From contig OZ253470.1 in the NCBI GenBank assembly GCA_965261735.1, positions 3,136,001 through 3,200,000 of the forward strand: 64,000 nucleotides of DNA, given 5' to 3'. The translations under genes were made by a program, and so were the position numbers. The notes under the pieces were generated by a model. The model saw only the letters and a program-made list of their open reading frames with translations, searched no databases and was not told the origin of the DNA. This document shows positions 40,913 to 44,774 of the stretch, piece after piece. Each line of letters starts with the position of its first letter. Position 1 is the stretch's first letter. This stretch comes from Alphaproteobacteria bacterium (lineage in GTDB: Bacteria; Pseudomonadota; Alphaproteobacteria; SHVV01).

Positions 40913-41818
40913 ATGAAAGACCTCTACGAAGTCCTCGGTGTTACAAGGAGCGCCAGCCAGGCGGAGATCAAGCACGCCTATCGCAAGCTCGCGAAGGAGC
41001 TTCATCCCGACCTCAACCCCGGCCAAACCACTGTCGCCGACCTCTTCAAGGAGGTCGCGGCCGCGTACACGATGCTTAACGACGCCGAGCGCCGGGCACA
41101 GTACGATCGCGGCCGGATACGTGGTACCGGTACGCGGCGCCGCCCCGGCGCCGAGCCCGCGACGGCGGGCCGCAGGTTCGGTTTCGAGCCCTTCGCGTTT
41201 GGCGCCGCCGCGGCCGAGGACCTATTCAGCGGCCTCTTCTCCGGCCTGGGGCCGACGAGGAAGGCCAGTTTCAAAGCCCAGGGCGCCGACCACAGCTATA
41301 AGCTGCGCGTGAGCTTCATCGATGCGGCGCTTGGCGCCAAGCGCCGGCTCGTGCTGCGTAACGGCCGCGCGGTCGAGGTCGCCATCCCCGCCGGAATCCG
41401 GGATGGCCAGTCGATCCGCCTCAAGGACCGGGGTGATCCGGGATTTGGCGGCGCGGCACCGGGTGATGCGCTGGTTCGCGTGAGCACCGAGCCCCATCCT
41501 TACTTCGGTCGTGAGGGCAACGACATACGGCTCGAAGTACCGGTGACTCTCAGGGAGGCAGTACTGAGAGCGCGAATTCGCGTGCCCACCGTCGCCGGGC
41601 CAGTGTCCATGCGGGTCCCGAAGGGCTCGAACACGGCCCGTGTGCTCCGTCTCCAGGGTAAAGGCATCAAGGATGCGGCGACGGGTGCCCTCGGCGACCA
41701 ATACGTGATGCTCAAGGTCGTCCTCCCCGACAAGACGGACACCGAGCTGGCGCGCCTGATGGCGCAATGGACGCCCCAGGACCCGCGCGGCGTGCGCCGC
41801 GGGCTCTGGCCCCTCTAG
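40913..41818 (+). CDS. DnaJ-class chaperone (CbpA-like)
   Basis: MKDLYEVLGV, HPD motif, C-terminal DnaJ domain, no Zn finger. Confidence 0.92.
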   Translation: MKDLYEVLGVTRSASQAEIKHAYRKLAKELHPDLNPGQTTVADLFKEVAAAYTMLNDAERRAQYDRGRIRGTGTRRRPGAEPATAGRRFGFEPFAFGAAAAEDLFSGLFSGLGPTRKASFKAQGADHSYKLRVSFIDAALGAKRRLVLRNGRAVEVAIPAGIRDGQSIRLKDRGDPGFGGAAPGDALVRVSTEPHPYFGREGNDIRLEVPVTLREAVLRARIRVPTVAGPVSMRVPKGSNTARVLRLQGKGIKDAATGALGDQYVMLKVVLPDKTDTELARLMAQWTPQDPRGVRRGLWPL

Positions 41819-41866
41819 GCACCAACACCTCCAAGCCCACAACGGCCCGTGCGGCGCGGTAGTGGG

Positions 41867-42754
41867 TCAGTTTGAATTTATTTTCTGGTAGGGACCGCGA
41901 GGGCCGAGATTCGGGGCCGCTTCGTCGACCAACCGCACGATGTCCTCGATATCCCAGAGCCGATCCGTAACGCCAGCGGCCATCGCCGGGCTGATCTTGT
42001 TCAGGCTCTTATGCTGGCGGCAAAAGTTGTAGTACATGAAGTGCAGCGCCACGCTGTGCGCGTGGTTCGCGATCTTCTTGCTGAATGCATTGGTCGACCG
42101 AGTGAAACGGCGGATCGACATCCGCATGGTCAGGTTGTTGCGCTCGACGTAGCTCGTAGAGACATGGGCGGGGTCCGGCTTGCCCTCGACGCTGCGCTTC
42201 CGCGCCCCGATGCAGGTCGGCGGGCTGTAGCGTTTCTCGCCGTCCTTCGCTTTGCCGTAGATTTTGACGAGCTGGGCATAGTCGACATCGCCGCCGAAAG
42301 CGCCCTCTACGGCTTCCAGATAAGGCTTGTGGCCATCGCTGGTCAGTTGGACCCGATTCTCCAGCCGAGACCGCAGATCGTCCATGAAGTCGATGGCGGT
42401 TTCACCCGAACGATCACCGATCCTCCACGACGGAACTAGCTTGGTGTCGGCGCAGATCGCGGTCCATGTCCAGACATCGCCAGCTTCCACCGGGGCGGAC
42501 TTGGCGCGGGCGACGTTCTTTTCCTTCGCGTAGATGAAGGACCAGATTTCGTCGACTTGTATACGTTCGCACGGCAGATCGCGCAGCGCCTTGTCCTGAT
42601 GGTCGGCGCACGCCTGGCCGGCATCAATCAGGAGCTTGGTGACCGTGTTCTTCGAAACGTCCGCAGTGCGTGCAGTCGCCCGGATGCTTTGGCCTTCGAC
42701 GAGGCACCGGACGATCAGCTTGCGGGTCTTGGGGTCTAGCCTGTTCATGACCAT
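41867..42754 (-). CDS. IS1-family DDE transposase (single ORF)
   Basis: HTH SIRATAR, IQVDEIWSF, LTSDG, STSYVERNNLTMR, RRFTRSTNAFSKK. Confidence 0.9.
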   Translation of the reverse strand: MVMNRLDPKTRKLIVRCLVEGQSIRATARTADVSKNTVTKLLIDAGQACADHQDKALRDLPCERIQVDEIWSFIYAKEKNVARAKSAPVEAGDVWTWTAICADTKLVPSWRIGDRSGETAIDFMDDLRSRLENRVQLTSDGHKPYLEAVEGAFGGDVDYAQLVKIYGKAKDGEKRYSPPTCIGARKRSVEGKPDPAHVSTSYVERNNLTMRMSIRRFTRSTNAFSKKIANHAHSVALHFMYYNFCRQHKSLNKISPAMAAGVTDRLWDIEDIVRLVDEAAPNLGPRGPYQKINSN

Positions 42755-42783
42755 AATATACGTGCGCTAACGGTCAGTTTCAA
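42755..42783 (-). promoter_or_regulatory. sigma70-type promoter of the IS1 transposase (probably leaderless)
   Basis: TTGAAA-N17-TATATT ending 7 nt before ATG 42748. Confidence 0.6.
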
Positions 42784-42869
42784 GACATTTCAACCAGTGT
42801 GTGTGAAACACATACATGGGAAAGGGCGGTCGGATCGGGGTTGCTCGAATTCCCGAACATCTGTATATG

Positions 42870-43045
42870 ATGAACCCGCGACGCTGAAGACGTCGCGGGT
42901 TCTAACCAATCCCGATGCAGGGGCAAGATAGAGCGGGGTTTAAAAAGATGGGTCCGACATTTTAGAACCCGCCCGAAGCCGGTCTCAACCGGCTTCGGGC
43001 ACCCCGCCTGCGGAGGTGGCATGACGTGCCACCTCCGCAGGCCTC
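42870..43045. ncRNA. putative structured non-coding RNA / multi-hairpin element inside the IS1 element
   Basis: Perfect stems of 12, 13 and 16 bp plus an imperfect stem. Confidence 0.5.
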
Positions 43046-43073
43046 CTTCTACCAGAAGCAGGGGGCGGCGACA

Positions 43074-43628
43074 ATGGTCGACAAATCAAACGCGTACGAT
43101 CTTGTGATTGCTGACCTGAAGCGTCAGCGCTCAGAGATAGACGCCATGATTGCCAAATTGGAGGCCATGGCTGGCGAACAGGTAATTCCACCTACTGATG
43201 CGCCTGATGCTCCGCCGAGCGAAGGCGATCCGGGTGGTCGGTCAGATCCCGAGAACAATCCGTATTTGGGTATGCGTGTAGCGGACGCTACGGTCTTGTT
43301 GTTGAAGAAGACGCGGAGGGCGATGGGTCCTTCGGAGATCGTGCAACATCTTGAGGCCGGCGGCCTTTTACTGAGCGGCAGCAACAGGCCGGGTACGATC
43401 ACGACGATCCTCAGTCGCCGTCAGGGGAAAAATGGCGATCTGGTGCGGCCGAGACGCGGCCAGTGGGGCCTGAAAGAATGGTACCCTGGACGGAACTTCG
43501 GAAAGACCGACGGAGCCGACAAGAACAACTCCAACGACGAGGACGCCACCTCGAAGGCTAGCGTGACCACCGAGCCCGAACAGCCTTCCGAGCCGCGTCA
43601 GAGCGCTCCGCCGCCGTCAGACGACTAG
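43074..43628 (+). CDS. coiled-coil + winged-helix (HARE-HTH-like) passenger protein
   Basis: IADLKRQRSEIDAMIAKLE; GMRVADATVLLL..EIVQHL..GQWGLKEWYP; acidic tail. Confidence 0.7.
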   Translation: MVDKSNAYDLVIADLKRQRSEIDAMIAKLEAMAGEQVIPPTDAPDAPPSEGDPGGRSDPENNPYLGMRVADATVLLLKKTRRAMGPSEIVQHLEAGGLLLSGSNRPGTITTILSRRQGKNGDLVRPRRGQWGLKEWYPGRNFGKTDGADKNNSNDEDATSKASVTTEPEQPSEPRQSAPPPSDD

Positions 43629-43797
43629 CCCTCGCGCGGCCACCGACTTGGCCACCCTTGCGGCCCCTCTCGACTGCGGAGGGGTCTTTCTCTTGGGGGC
43701 CTGTGCCTGTGTCTGTCTCTTCGACCTCGCCCGTCGCCAAGTCCACGATGTGCTTGGCGAGCTGGTTGGTGTCGCGGGGCCTCTTGCGCTTCGACAT
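43558..43797 (-). CDS. small basic KGG-motif passenger protein
   Basis: MSKRKRPRDTNQLAKHIVDLATGE..GRKGGQVGGRARA..ERSDAARKAVRARW. Confidence 0.75.
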   Translation of the reverse strand: MSKRKRPRDTNQLAKHIVDLATGEVEETDTGTGPQEKDPSAVERGRKGGQVGGRARASRLTAAERSDAARKAVRARWSR

Positions 43798-43961
43798 CCC
43801 ATGAATATGGCACGCCTCGGCCCGAACGGCTAGGGTTCGGCCAACGGTCCGACATTTCACACTGACCCACTACCTGCGGCGCGGGCGCCGTTTGACGCCT
43901 GTCCGGGTTGGTGTACGATGCCGACGCGCCGAGGCGCCGTCATTCACCGTTGAGGCTACCC

Positions 43962-44774
43962 ATGGCCGCTTCCGCCCCCCTGATGGCCGGCAAGAAGGGG
44001 CTGATCATGGGCATCGCCAATGACCGCTCGCTCGCCTGGGGTATCGCCCGCACGGTTGCCGCGCACGGCGCCGAACTCGCGCTCACCTACCAGGGCGAGG
44101 CCCTCGGTCGCCGCGTCCTGCCGCTCGCGGAAGAGGTCGGCGCCCGCCCTGTGATTCCGTGCGACGTCGCTGACGAGGCGAGCCTCGATGCGGTCTTCAG
44201 CAGCCTCTCGGAGGCGTGGGGGTCGCTCGATTTCGTGGTCCACGCCATCGCCTACTCGGACAAGGAGCAGCTCAAGTCGCGCTATTGCGACACCACGGCC
44301 GATAATTTCGCCACGACCCTGGAGATCTCCTGCTACTCGTTTACCGCCGTGTGCCAGAGGGCGGCACCACTGATGCAGGACGGTGGCAGCCTGCTGACGC
44401 TGACCTATTTCGGCGCCGAGAAGGTGGTTCCGCACTACAACGTCATGGGTGTCGCCAAGGCCGCGCTCGAAGCCAGCGTCCGCTATCTCGCCGTCGATCT
44501 CGGCGAGCGGGGCATTCGGGTCAACGCGATCTCCGCCGGGCCGATCAAGACTCTCGCTGCTTCCGGCATCGGCGATTTCCGCTACATCCTCAAGTGGAAC
44601 GAGTACAACGCACCGCTCAAGCGCAACGTCACCATCGACGAGGTCGGCGGCGCCGCGCTCTATCTCATGAGCGATCTTGGGCGCGGCGTGACCGGCGAGA
44701 TCCATCACGTCGATTCGGGCTACCACATCGTCGGTATGAAGGCGGTCGACGCCCCCGACATCGCCACCGTTTAG
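43962..44774 (+). CDS. fabI: enoyl-ACP reductase FabI
   Basis: GIANDRSLAWGIA, YNVMGVAKAALE, ISAGPIKTLAASGI. Confidence 0.96.
   Translation: MAASAPLMAGKKGLIMGIANDRSLAWGIARTVAAHGAELALTYQGEALGRRVLPLAEEVGARPVIPCDVADEASLDAVFSSLSEAWGSLDFVVHAIAYSDKEQLKSRYCDTTADNFATTLEISCYSFTAVCQRAAPLMQDGGSLLTLTYFGAEKVVPHYNVMGVAKAALEASVRYLAVDLGERGIRVNAISAGPIKTLAASGIGDFRYILKWNEYNAPLKRNVTIDEVGGAALYLMSDLGRGVTGEIHHVDSGYHIVGMKAVDAPDIATV

Follow-up and report, generated by a model that had tools for sequence, protein, structure and literature searches.

An IS1-family element of an alphaproteobacterium as a likely member of a transporter insertion sequence clade with a fixed backbone and a variable interior

Introduction

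The classical insertion sequence (IS) IS1 is about 0.8 kb long and has no genes beyond those for transposition, its insA and insB′ frames being joined by programmed -1 frameshifting. The IS1 family has ends of the GGT type and produces target duplications of 8-9 bp. In a 64,000-nucleotide stretch of an alphaproteobacterial genome (assembly GCA_965261735.1, contig OZ253470.1, positions 3,136,001 to 3,200,000; hereafter the window), a segment of 2,017 bp at positions 41858-43874 has inverted repeats at both ends and a flanking target duplication. It contains an IS1-like transposase gene, two further genes and a non-coding stretch. Does this segment form a single mobile unit, and what are its additional genes? 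An earlier reading of the letters (the original prediction) had proposed an IS1-family unit far bigger than classical IS1, which carries cargo and moves as one. The target duplication and the inverted repeats agree with this proposal. On comparative sequence evidence, we conclude with good confidence that 41858-43874 is an intact, single-copy member of a widespread IS1-family clade of transporter insertion sequences having a fixed backbone and a variable interior.

A 2-kb unit with IS1-type ends

The target-site duplication (TSD), TGCGGCGC, occupies positions 41850-41857 on the left, and a perfect 8-bp match to it occupies positions 43875-43882 on the right. Immediately inside are the 19-nt terminal inverted repeats. 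The repeat at the transposase end (IRR, 41858-41876, GGTAGTGGGTCAGTTTGAA) pairs with that at the small-protein end (IRL, 43856-43874) at 18 of 19 positions (95%), and the terminal repeat sequence of the element reads GGTAGTGGGTCAGT[T/G]TGAA. On the minus strand, starting from the right end, the element encodes a basic protein of 79 residues that we call KGG (43558-43797) and, after a gap, the IS1-family transposase, a single open reading frame (ORF) of 295 codons (41867-42754). The gene between them, on the plus strand, encodes a 184-residue protein with a HARE-HTH domain (43074-43628). Its 3′ end overlaps the convergent small-protein gene (kgg) by 71 bp, and 319 bp of non-coding DNA (42755-43073) separate it from the transposase gene. 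All these parts had been noticed in the original prediction, as clean inverted repeats and an 8-bp duplication enclosing a transposase, about 320 bp of non-coding DNA, a divergent gene and an overlapping basic protein, and all were found where it had placed them. The G+C content is 0.57-0.62 within the element as compared to 0.65-0.70 in the flanks.

The transposase matches the Pfam family DDE_Tnp_IS1 with 28.9 bits (cut-off 24.1), over residues 199-236 only, and its plasmid homologues are annotated as 'IS1 family transposase' by PGAP. Forty-nine transposases could be aligned over the full length, with a mean column identity of 66%. Because the relatives begin at ATGAAC, the true start is likely the second ATG, at 42748 (MNRLD...). 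The element resembles classical IS1 (E. coli IS1A) in its DDE transposase of the IS1 profile, its GGT..TG ends and its 8-bp duplication, and in having a co-oriented small gene ahead of the transposase gene, like insA ahead of insB. It differs in that the transposase is one uninterrupted ORF with its own N-terminal helix-turn-helix (HTH), showing no two-frame insA/insB′ arrangement and no frameshift. It also differs in that the small-protein gene lies 0.6-3 kb from the transposase gene with variable genes between them, and in that the elements measure 2.0-5.0 kb as compared to about 0.8 kb. In the closest relative with a HARE-type cassette (L040), a 5-nt gap near element nt 1245 splits the transposase into an 87-residue HTH ORF and a 229-residue catalytic ORF; this would be an inactive copy or else an arrangement like that of insA and insB.

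Complete relatives share the ends and the duplication

A search of species-representative genomes confirmed 268 transposase relatives, and the best 80 of these were taken. Together with three plasmid loci (Mesorhizobium loti, Hoeflea and Acidiphilium) and the window, they make a set of 84 loci. The ends of the elements were located by the 18-nt core of the terminal repeat, allowing at most 4 mismatches; most had 0-2. Both ends were found in 69 of the 84 loci and define elements of 2,004-4,969 bp, across which the core is near-invariant. None of the 69 is shorter than 2,004 bp and none has the size of classical IS1. Enough flanking sequence was available for 66 elements, 61 of which have a perfect 8-bp target duplication, two have one mismatch and three have none. 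Since the duplications flank the full units, the whole unit, cargo included, transposes.

The transposases of the set are 56-90% identical and, together with near-identical ends, occur under many phylum labels. Among the labels in the record titles are Alphaproteobacteria, Gammaproteobacteria, Chloroflexota, Nitrospirota, Acidobacteriota, Spirochaetota, Ignavibacteriota, Thermodesulfobacteriota, Patescibacteria, Verrucomicrobiota and Bacillota. Five plasmid records hold a transposase relative at E <= 1e-40, and the clade is rare in cultured material. A search of phages gave a single weak match to the transposase, 35% identical and covering 94% of the length, in Brevundimonas phage vB_BpoS-Gurke (ON529850.1, 174788-175669). 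It sits in an unannotated stretch of the 321-kb jumbo-phage genome, the sole phage record matched.

These data bear on whether the arrangement could be an accident, that is, an ordinary IS1-type element of about 0.9 kb lying beside unrelated genes, or a decayed composite whose inverted repeat arose by chance. A copy matching the transposase part alone, nt 1-903, and ending in unrelated DNA does exist (L004, in genome G002), and solo inverted repeats with kgg remnants are present in the genome studied here. Against this, the 8-bp duplication flanks the 2,017-bp unit and not a 0.9-kb one, the lengths and duplications of the complete relatives follow the same rule, and L040, 76% identical and inserted at another site in another genome, is organised as the same 2-kb unit. 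We regard an accident as extremely improbable.

The interior is an exchangeable cassette

The window element and L040 align from end to end with about 76-77% identity. In contrast, pairwise BLAST between the window element and L024 gives matches only over element nt 1-157 and 1115-2017, and L040 matches L033 only over nt 1-152 and 1098-2004. In the transposase tree the window element is nearest to L024 (90% amino acid identity) and L040 is nearest to L033, so that the HARE-bearing elements are not a clade. The interiors of L024 and L033 hold two genes each and are wholly unlike the HARE cassette of the window element and L040. The junctions fall at about codon 26 of kgg and at the transposase start. 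In the window, the exchangeable cassette is thus delimited at 42761-43717 and consists of the C-terminal two thirds of kgg, the HARE gene with its leader, the hairpins and the transposase promoter. By these alignments the fixed backbone comprises IRL, the first 26 or so codons of kgg, the single-ORF DDE transposase and IRR, and the interior differs between near-identical elements. The modular build that had been proposed from this locus alone is thus borne out by sharp junctions in two independent pairs.

Such junctions would be explained if cassettes were swapped by homologous recombination between co-resident elements, with IRL and the kgg 5′ end as one conserved arm and the transposase gene as the other. 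We think that exchange rather probably took this course. This genome offers partners for it, as at least two remnants and a second complete element are present. An exact direct repeat of 12 nt, GGTCCGACATTT, was also considered as a footprint of cassette insertion. One copy (43846-43857) lies just inside the terminal repeat and the other (42951-42962) within the conserved non-coding block; the repeat is absent from L040, its chance occurrence is about 1 in 8 by our estimate, and the idea was dropped.

The contents of the slot were surveyed by comparing 272 non-transposase ORFs of at least 60 codons, from 68 elements, with Pfam; the ORFs of the relatives are longest-ORF calls under a greedy overlap rule, and some are spurious. 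One recurrent cassette encodes a protein of about 380 residues with HTH_3 and Peptidase_M78 domains (ImmA/IrrE type) and a partner of about 160 residues. Other cassettes of toxin-antitoxin (TA) type hold HigB-like, Fic, PIN and Gp49 + HTH_3 pairs, and SocA/Panacea pairs. Nuclease and restriction-modification (RM) cassettes hold a staphylococcal-nuclease protein (SNase), N6_N4 methylase-HNH fusions and BglII with an MT-A70 methylase. P63C, ClpP-like SDH proteases, NYN, DUF3800, DUF4325 and DUF5343 were found in addition. With PADLOC-DB 2.0 (E <= 1e-5), 95 cargo proteins, chosen among the longer ORFs of 52 elements, gave matches for 19 proteins in 17 elements. These include both RosmerTA genes (RmrT and RmrA) on the Hoeflea plasmid, as well as BstA (2.8e-118), SoFic, PD-Lambda-2_B, HEC-04, HEC-09, PDC-S13 and PDC-M24B. 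By these profile matches, addiction, restriction or anti-phage modules can fairly be said to occupy the slot in a substantial part of the clade. Comparing the cargo of homologous elements, a check proposed for this locus at the outset, therefore returned a varying interior beside a constant KGG, and the suggestion of addiction or defence cargo finds support in the sibling elements, which hold such genes in the same slot.

The small basic protein belongs to the backbone

Neither the 79-residue form of the small protein nor a 100-residue form matched any Pfam family at E <= 1, the Pfam KGG family included; the name KGG is therefore merely a nickname. In the same Pfam search no zinc finger and no HTH_Tnp_IS1 match was obtained, and NCBIfam and PADLOC gave no match either. 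By tblastn, 67 of the 69 complete elements encode the protein. In the 44 elements listed, its gene is on the transposase strand and has its ATG 48-123 nt in from the IRL end. In order to follow it independently of the transposase, a profile built from 62 homologues was searched in 401 sampled alphaproteobacterial genomes, and 47 of them matched (one genome of this census, G245, is flagged as unpublished). Thirty loci found through KGG only were fetched. Twenty-nine of them have an 18-mer resembling the inverted repeat (at most 4 mismatches) upstream and in the right orientation, as compared to a chance expectation that we estimate at about 0.025 per locus. A transposase gene lies within the 1.5-kb flank in 14 of the 30, co-oriented with kgg in 13 of these. 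Because it is present in 67 of 69 elements and follows an inverted repeat in 29 of 30 KGG-only loci, KGG is a backbone gene and not cargo. The small protein had initially been taken for a passenger, and this part of the original prediction has to be given up: it is instead the signature gene of the backbone.

Homologues number 265 in all, and no precomputed Pfam domain is attached to any of the 120 listed. Their names are 'hypothetical' or 'histone H1', the latter being used by PGAP on the M. loti plasmid too; in our opinion this second name is wrong. The N-terminal motif KRPRDxNQLAKxIVDxATGE is near-invariant and the C-terminal stretch reads GGxKGGxARAxxLxxxxRxxIAxKAAxARW. The AlphaFold model (mean pLDDT 82) has three helices with a confident C-terminal helical hairpin. 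A profile search against solved structures gave no match at E <= 10, Foldseek of the model found nothing meaningful, and the ESM Atlas returned only clusters named 'hypothetical' or 'Histone H1 family'. In two other elements, P63C cargo proteins (L067, 4876-5883, and L094, 1337-2560, both on the minus strand) carry the C-terminal motif of KGG at their N-terminus (...GGKARAExLxxxxRxxIAxxAxxARW). The fusion indicates that the helical hairpin of about 30 residues is a separate module.

What KGG does can be approached from its place in the element. It may be an element-encoded DNA-binding accessory or regulatory factor, acting in transposition or on both backbone promoters; to us this proposal has as much for it as against it. 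A prediction of the transposase-KGG complex scored 0.00, in a run without controls, and is evidence neither way. Alternatively, KGG and the cassette gene would form a toxin-antitoxin or abortive-infection pair, with KGG as an antidote or regulator matched to its cassette. Such pairing would account for the C-terminal two thirds of KGG travelling with the cassette, and for the window KGG being closer to that of the element with the same cargo (73% to L040) than to that of its transposase relative (51% to L024). It would also fit the convergent overlap of HARE and kgg, kept at 71-86 bp in L040, L106 and L107, which would allow antisense coupling, and the fusion of the KGG motif to P63C cargo proteins. 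However, KGG accompanies every kind of cargo, including complete two-gene systems (RmrT/RmrA, BglII + methylase), its promoter and N-terminal motif belong to the backbone, and co-inheritance of the 3′ part of kgg is expected from simple linkage. We consider a cassette-matched pair improbable and favour a KGG that belongs to the backbone.

Predicted promoters of the two backbone genes

Upstream of the transposase gene, on the minus strand, a promoter-like site TTGAAA-17-TATATT (42755-42783) has its -10 hexamer ending 6 nt before the ATG at 42748. A motif resembling the inner part of the terminal repeat, GGTCAGTTTCAAG (42772-42784), overlaps this site, and such a motif is found within 110 nt upstream of the transposase gene in 18 of the 69 elements. 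A strict test for leaderless starts was applied, with -35 and -10 consensus and the -10 hexamer ending 4-9 nt before the ATG. It was passed by 42 of 69 transposase starts, that of the window included, and by 29 of 63 kgg starts. As background, 117 of the 7,057 ATG triplets that the same DNA contains passed, and among cargo ORFs 3 of 155 starts did.

From these consensus promoters both backbone genes are probably transcribed as leaderless mRNAs, which would need no host-specific ribosome-binding site. As a leaderless mRNA needs no Shine-Dalgarno match, such expression would suit an element that is found under many phylum labels. In a subset of the elements, the transposase and kgg promoters share a palindromic spacer motif, ATGCTTGAGCGGTCAAG-like, which suggests one repressor for both.

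The non-coding stretch upstream of the HARE gene

The only ORFs within 42755-43073 have 80 and 44 codons, and neither is kept in L040. The stretch is shared by HARE-type cassettes only (81% identity over 320 nt with L040, 74% over 91 nt with L104/L106) and was not found in elements with other cargo. The plus strand of 42865-43076 has a predicted folding energy of -120.2 kcal/mol as compared to -75.1 for shuffled sequences (z = -10.4). An Rfam scan of 41500-44200 (E <= 1) gave no family above its gathering score; sX12 reached 21.6 bits (gathering score 106) and ROSE_3 20.8 bits (43), with E-values of 0.3-0.8.

The block 42868-42972 is the most conserved, being about 94% identical to L040, above the coding parts. 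At its left end, hairpin 1 (42872-42902) has a perfect 12-bp stem and is terminator-like on the strand of the transposase. L040 has the identical hairpin; L106 and L107 form the stem from a different sequence, and on the minus strand of L106 a T-run comes after it. By its position and shape, hairpin 1 is probably a terminator that insulates the transposase from read-through coming from kgg or from outside. The conserved block also contains a consensus match TTGAGA-18-TAAAAT on the minus strand (42988-42959) and a TTTAAA/TATAAA box on the plus strand, and may thus hold back-to-back promoters.

The HARE gene is preceded by a structured leader on the plus strand (42971-43073). In the predicted fold it is made of hairpin 2 (42971-43000) and hairpin 3 (43006-43042), both with perfect stems, and of a last stem in which the G-rich ribosome-binding site of the gene is paired. 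All four aligned elements retain hairpin 3, and several of its base pairs differ on both sides, four sequences being too few for firm covariation. Such a leader could occlude the ribosome-binding site. Another terminator-like hairpin with a T-run (43662-43686, plus strand) lies downstream of the HARE gene, inside the opposite-strand kgg. This copy of the element would therefore keep its HARE gene, for a coiled-coil protein, behind an occluding leader, with hairpin 1 shielding the transposase from read-through.

The cargo had been suggested to be an RNA-protein unit. The non-coding stretch is better read as transposase promoter, terminator-like insulator hairpin and HARE leader. A small RNA running on the minus strand from the site at 42988-42959 to hairpin 1 was considered as well. 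It fits the conservation and its own fold is only moderately unusual (z = -4.3), but nothing sets it apart from a shared regulatory region, and it was not retained. In four metagenome loci with HARE genes (L108, L110, L111 and L112) the leader is different and longer, about 470 nt, and has a highly conserved block of about 150 nt some 200 nt upstream of the gene. There, the two sides of a stem change together (CTGGT/ACCAG as compared to TCGG/CCGA) and TAGTAGTTAGGAACGGAGG follows; from this alignment, read by eye, the block is possibly another structured RNA.

The HARE-HTH protein

The 184-residue protein matches Pfam HARE-HTH (PF05066) with 28.0 bits (cut-off 25.9). It has 118 homologues of 116-220 residues, most of them with PF05066, and the ESM Atlas also returned HARE-HTH clusters. 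Conserved features of the family are an N-terminal Y..VIADL..R, a winged helix and the motif GxWGLKEWYPGR. An AlphaFold (AF2) model was obtained from a 70-sequence alignment (mean pLDDT 73.9). It consists of a long helix (residues 5-34), a disordered linker (37-57), a winged helix (about 66-137) and a disordered tail, with pLDDT >89 over residues 61-140. The tail is mildly acidic, the last 46 residues having 10 acidic and 5 basic ones. According to this model the protein is probably dimeric through its coiled coil. The best Foldseek matches in the PDB were the DNA-binding domain of Rok and several N-domains of the RNA polymerase delta subunit; they are weak (E 6e-3 to 0.1, none <=0.001). The model superposes on the delta N-domains 8x6g_E, 7f75_L and 2krc with a target TM of 0.55-0.64 and a root-mean-square deviation of about 3 A, and the sequence profile matches delta weakly (E 0.04) through the WGLxxWYP motif. 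The likeness to the RNA polymerase delta/HARE-HTH family, noticed at the outset from WGLKEWYP, is therefore upheld: the motif is nearly invariant in the family, the Pfam cut-off is passed and the structure agrees. Modelling both proteins with AlphaFold, as had been advised, thus gave a winged helix for one and three helices without known likeness for the other.

The protein shares with the delta subunit (RpoE) of Firmicutes the PF05066 domain, the WGLxxWYP motif, the superposition of the N-domain and a disordered tail after it. In contrast to delta, it has an additional N-terminal helix of 30 residues before the HARE domain, and its tail is short and mildly acidic where that of delta is long and polyanionic. 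Moreover, delta is a housekeeping gene product of Firmicutes whereas the HARE gene lies on a mobile element in an alphaproteobacterium. An identification as RpoE delta was thus rejected on architecture and setting (helix first, short tail, IS-borne, 6 of 401 genomes).

A metagenome search with the HARE protein alone returned nine loci, at 29-42% identity. An IS1 transposase gene lies upstream on the opposite strand in seven of them, and the small-protein gene downstream on the opposite strand in five; a further genome copy (L129/L144) shows the same layout. Since one layout recurs in distant loci, the HARE cassette is old and specific to these elements. It is also rare: the gene was found in 6 of the 401 alphaproteobacterial genomes as compared to 47 for KGG, and tblastn gave no match among 72,556 plasmids. 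The locus had been described with the proviso that its passengers should be conserved in homologous elements. For the HARE gene this is so in a scattered subset; it is absent from most homologous elements, the slot being variable. A wider family, including the weaker HARE-HTH proteins of L066 and L073 and the winged-HTH protein of L056, was not retained, as jackhmmer over the ORFs of the 69 elements recovered the window and L040 only.

By its fold, we infer a DNA- or RNA-polymerase-binding effector that is kept for a benefit to the element or its host. By analogy with the sibling cargo, the protein may be a nucleic-acid-binding effector or regulator that pays for retention of the element through defence, exclusion or silencing, a plausible reading to which we give slightly less than even weight. 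The chief competing explanation is that the HARE-HTH protein is the element's own transposition regulator in a sub-lineage, either a repressor of the backbone promoters or a factor in target choice, and not directed to the host. The gene is the sole occupant of the slot in the window, L040, L106 and L107; its relatives are nearly always inside these elements in one layout, as in the seven metagenome loci and L129/L144; it stands back to back with the transposase promoter, beside the motif resembling the inverted repeat; and the model has a DNA-binding fold with a dimerising helix. All this would suit a regulator. However, transposases 88-90% identical work with other cassettes that lack HARE (L024, L033), HARE is found in far fewer genomes than KGG (6 and 47 of 401), and elsewhere the same slot holds TA, RM and defence genes. 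We therefore judge an own transposition regulator unlikely and retain the effector as the preferred function.

Comparison with known mobile elements

The term transporter IS (tIS), as used by the curators of ISfinder, designates IS derivatives with passenger genes (PMC3129680, PMC9330008; see also PMC7986276). The window element resembles tIS in having passenger genes inside its inverted repeats and a target duplication bounding the full unit. It goes beyond tIS as described in its conserved second backbone gene, near-invariant 18-nt ends, sharp cassette junctions and cargo rich in TA, RM and anti-phage genes. In the literature searched, the tIS concept was found, and no description of the clade, its small protein, cassette exchange or defence cargo was found, ISfinder and TnPedia being outside the search; nothing was found under the name ISMhu11 either. 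By its transposase, ends and duplication, the element is placed in the IS1 family as a tIS, a type already known, and in a clade of which we found no description.

Integron cassettes, Tn7-like cargo regions and P2/P4 prophage hotspots are defence carriers that swap cargo. As in these systems, constant flanks surround a slot where one defence or addiction module takes the place of another, unrelated one. In contrast to them, there is no integrase or attC-type site and the slot holds one to four genes; the flanks are the transposase gene and the 5′ end of the small-protein gene, and exchange would proceed by the recombination proposed above.

Several points weigh against the assignment to a widespread, cassette-exchanging IS1-family clade. 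For this copy, the element is single-copy in its genome and gives no sign there of recent activity. The best NCBIfam model for the transposase, transpos_IS1, is reached with 65.6 bits, below the cut-off of 100. The kgg promoter of the window fails the strict test, having a -10 only (CATATT, 6 nt before the ATG), and all promoters, leaderless starts and terminators are predictions from consensus matches only. For the clade, five of the 66 elements lack a perfect TSD, the cassette junctions were mapped in two element pairs only, and the transposase tree is a quick, unfinished search with SH-aLRT support alone. Most loci come from metagenome-assembled genomes, so that phylum labels may be wrong for mobile DNA. 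As regards defence, the HARE protein, KGG and the transposase match no PADLOC family at E <= 1e-5, and several of the PADLOC matches of the cargo are to generic HTH or methylase models. With matches in 17 of 52 elements only and many cargo ORFs unannotated, 'defence cargo' fits a part of the clade. As to novelty, ISfinder lists tIS in the IS1595 family, as well as a subgroup of IS1 whose lengths reach about 4.6 kb, so that the curators may already know such elements.

A bolder proposal, which we put forward as tentative and on the whole doubtful, is that the clade is an undescribed cassette-swapping vehicle. Its host-independent, leaderless two-gene backbone would then include a new class of small basic accessory protein, and its slot would be a shuffling miniature island of defence and addiction genes. 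The unannotated occupants, HARE included, would be candidate single- or two-gene anti-phage or addiction systems, and RNA polymerase, or else modified or foreign DNA, may be the target of the HARE protein. If this were true, the slot would provide a 'guilt by embedding' handle on new defence and addiction genes in uncultured bacteria, one that the 18-nt repeat and the 26-codon motif make easily searchable; about one third of the tested elements hold named systems (RosmerTA, BstA, SoFic, restriction-modification). Transfer of such genes between distant lineages would then be open to very small transposons too, and not reserved to large islands, phages and Tn7-like elements, with leaderless expression as a possible route to a broad host range. 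Two uncharacterised protein families, the small protein annotated as 'histone H1' and the coiled-coil HARE-HTH protein, would gain a genetic setting.

Setting of the element and other traces of the clade

Seen from this genome alone, there is nothing unusual: it has one intact mobile element, flanked by a DnaJ-type gene that ends at 41818 and a fabI-like gene that starts near 43960, and elsewhere a second element of the clade. The latter, outside the window (C1:896468-899695), is complete, with 3,228 bp and perfect 18-nt ends, GGTAGTGCATCATTTTGA. It encodes a 292-residue transposase (60% identical), a KGG of the MPKGPQGQKRP... subtype and, in its cassette, a 388-residue HTH/ImmA-type protein with an HExxH motif and a 152-residue partner. 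An IS1595-type transposase gene directly adjoins it.

Solo terminal repeats of the clade also occur in this genome, at C1:2589465-2590242 (L020, L151) and C1:3095454-3095472 (L019). The former locus has two repeats of different subtypes, 350 bp apart and facing away from each other, one with a frameshifted kgg remnant and the other with an intact KGG-like ORF. These solo repeats look like decayed or truncated elements. In G002, a genome of the same family, the transposase arm of L004 (C3:1047697-1048608, 78% identical) stops right at the transposase start and runs into a 60-nt palindrome, followed by what appears to be another transposase gene; this copy would have lost, or never had, the cassette and the kgg arm. 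G002 also has separate IRL-kgg arms that are followed by other genes and broken by other IS (L008, L011).

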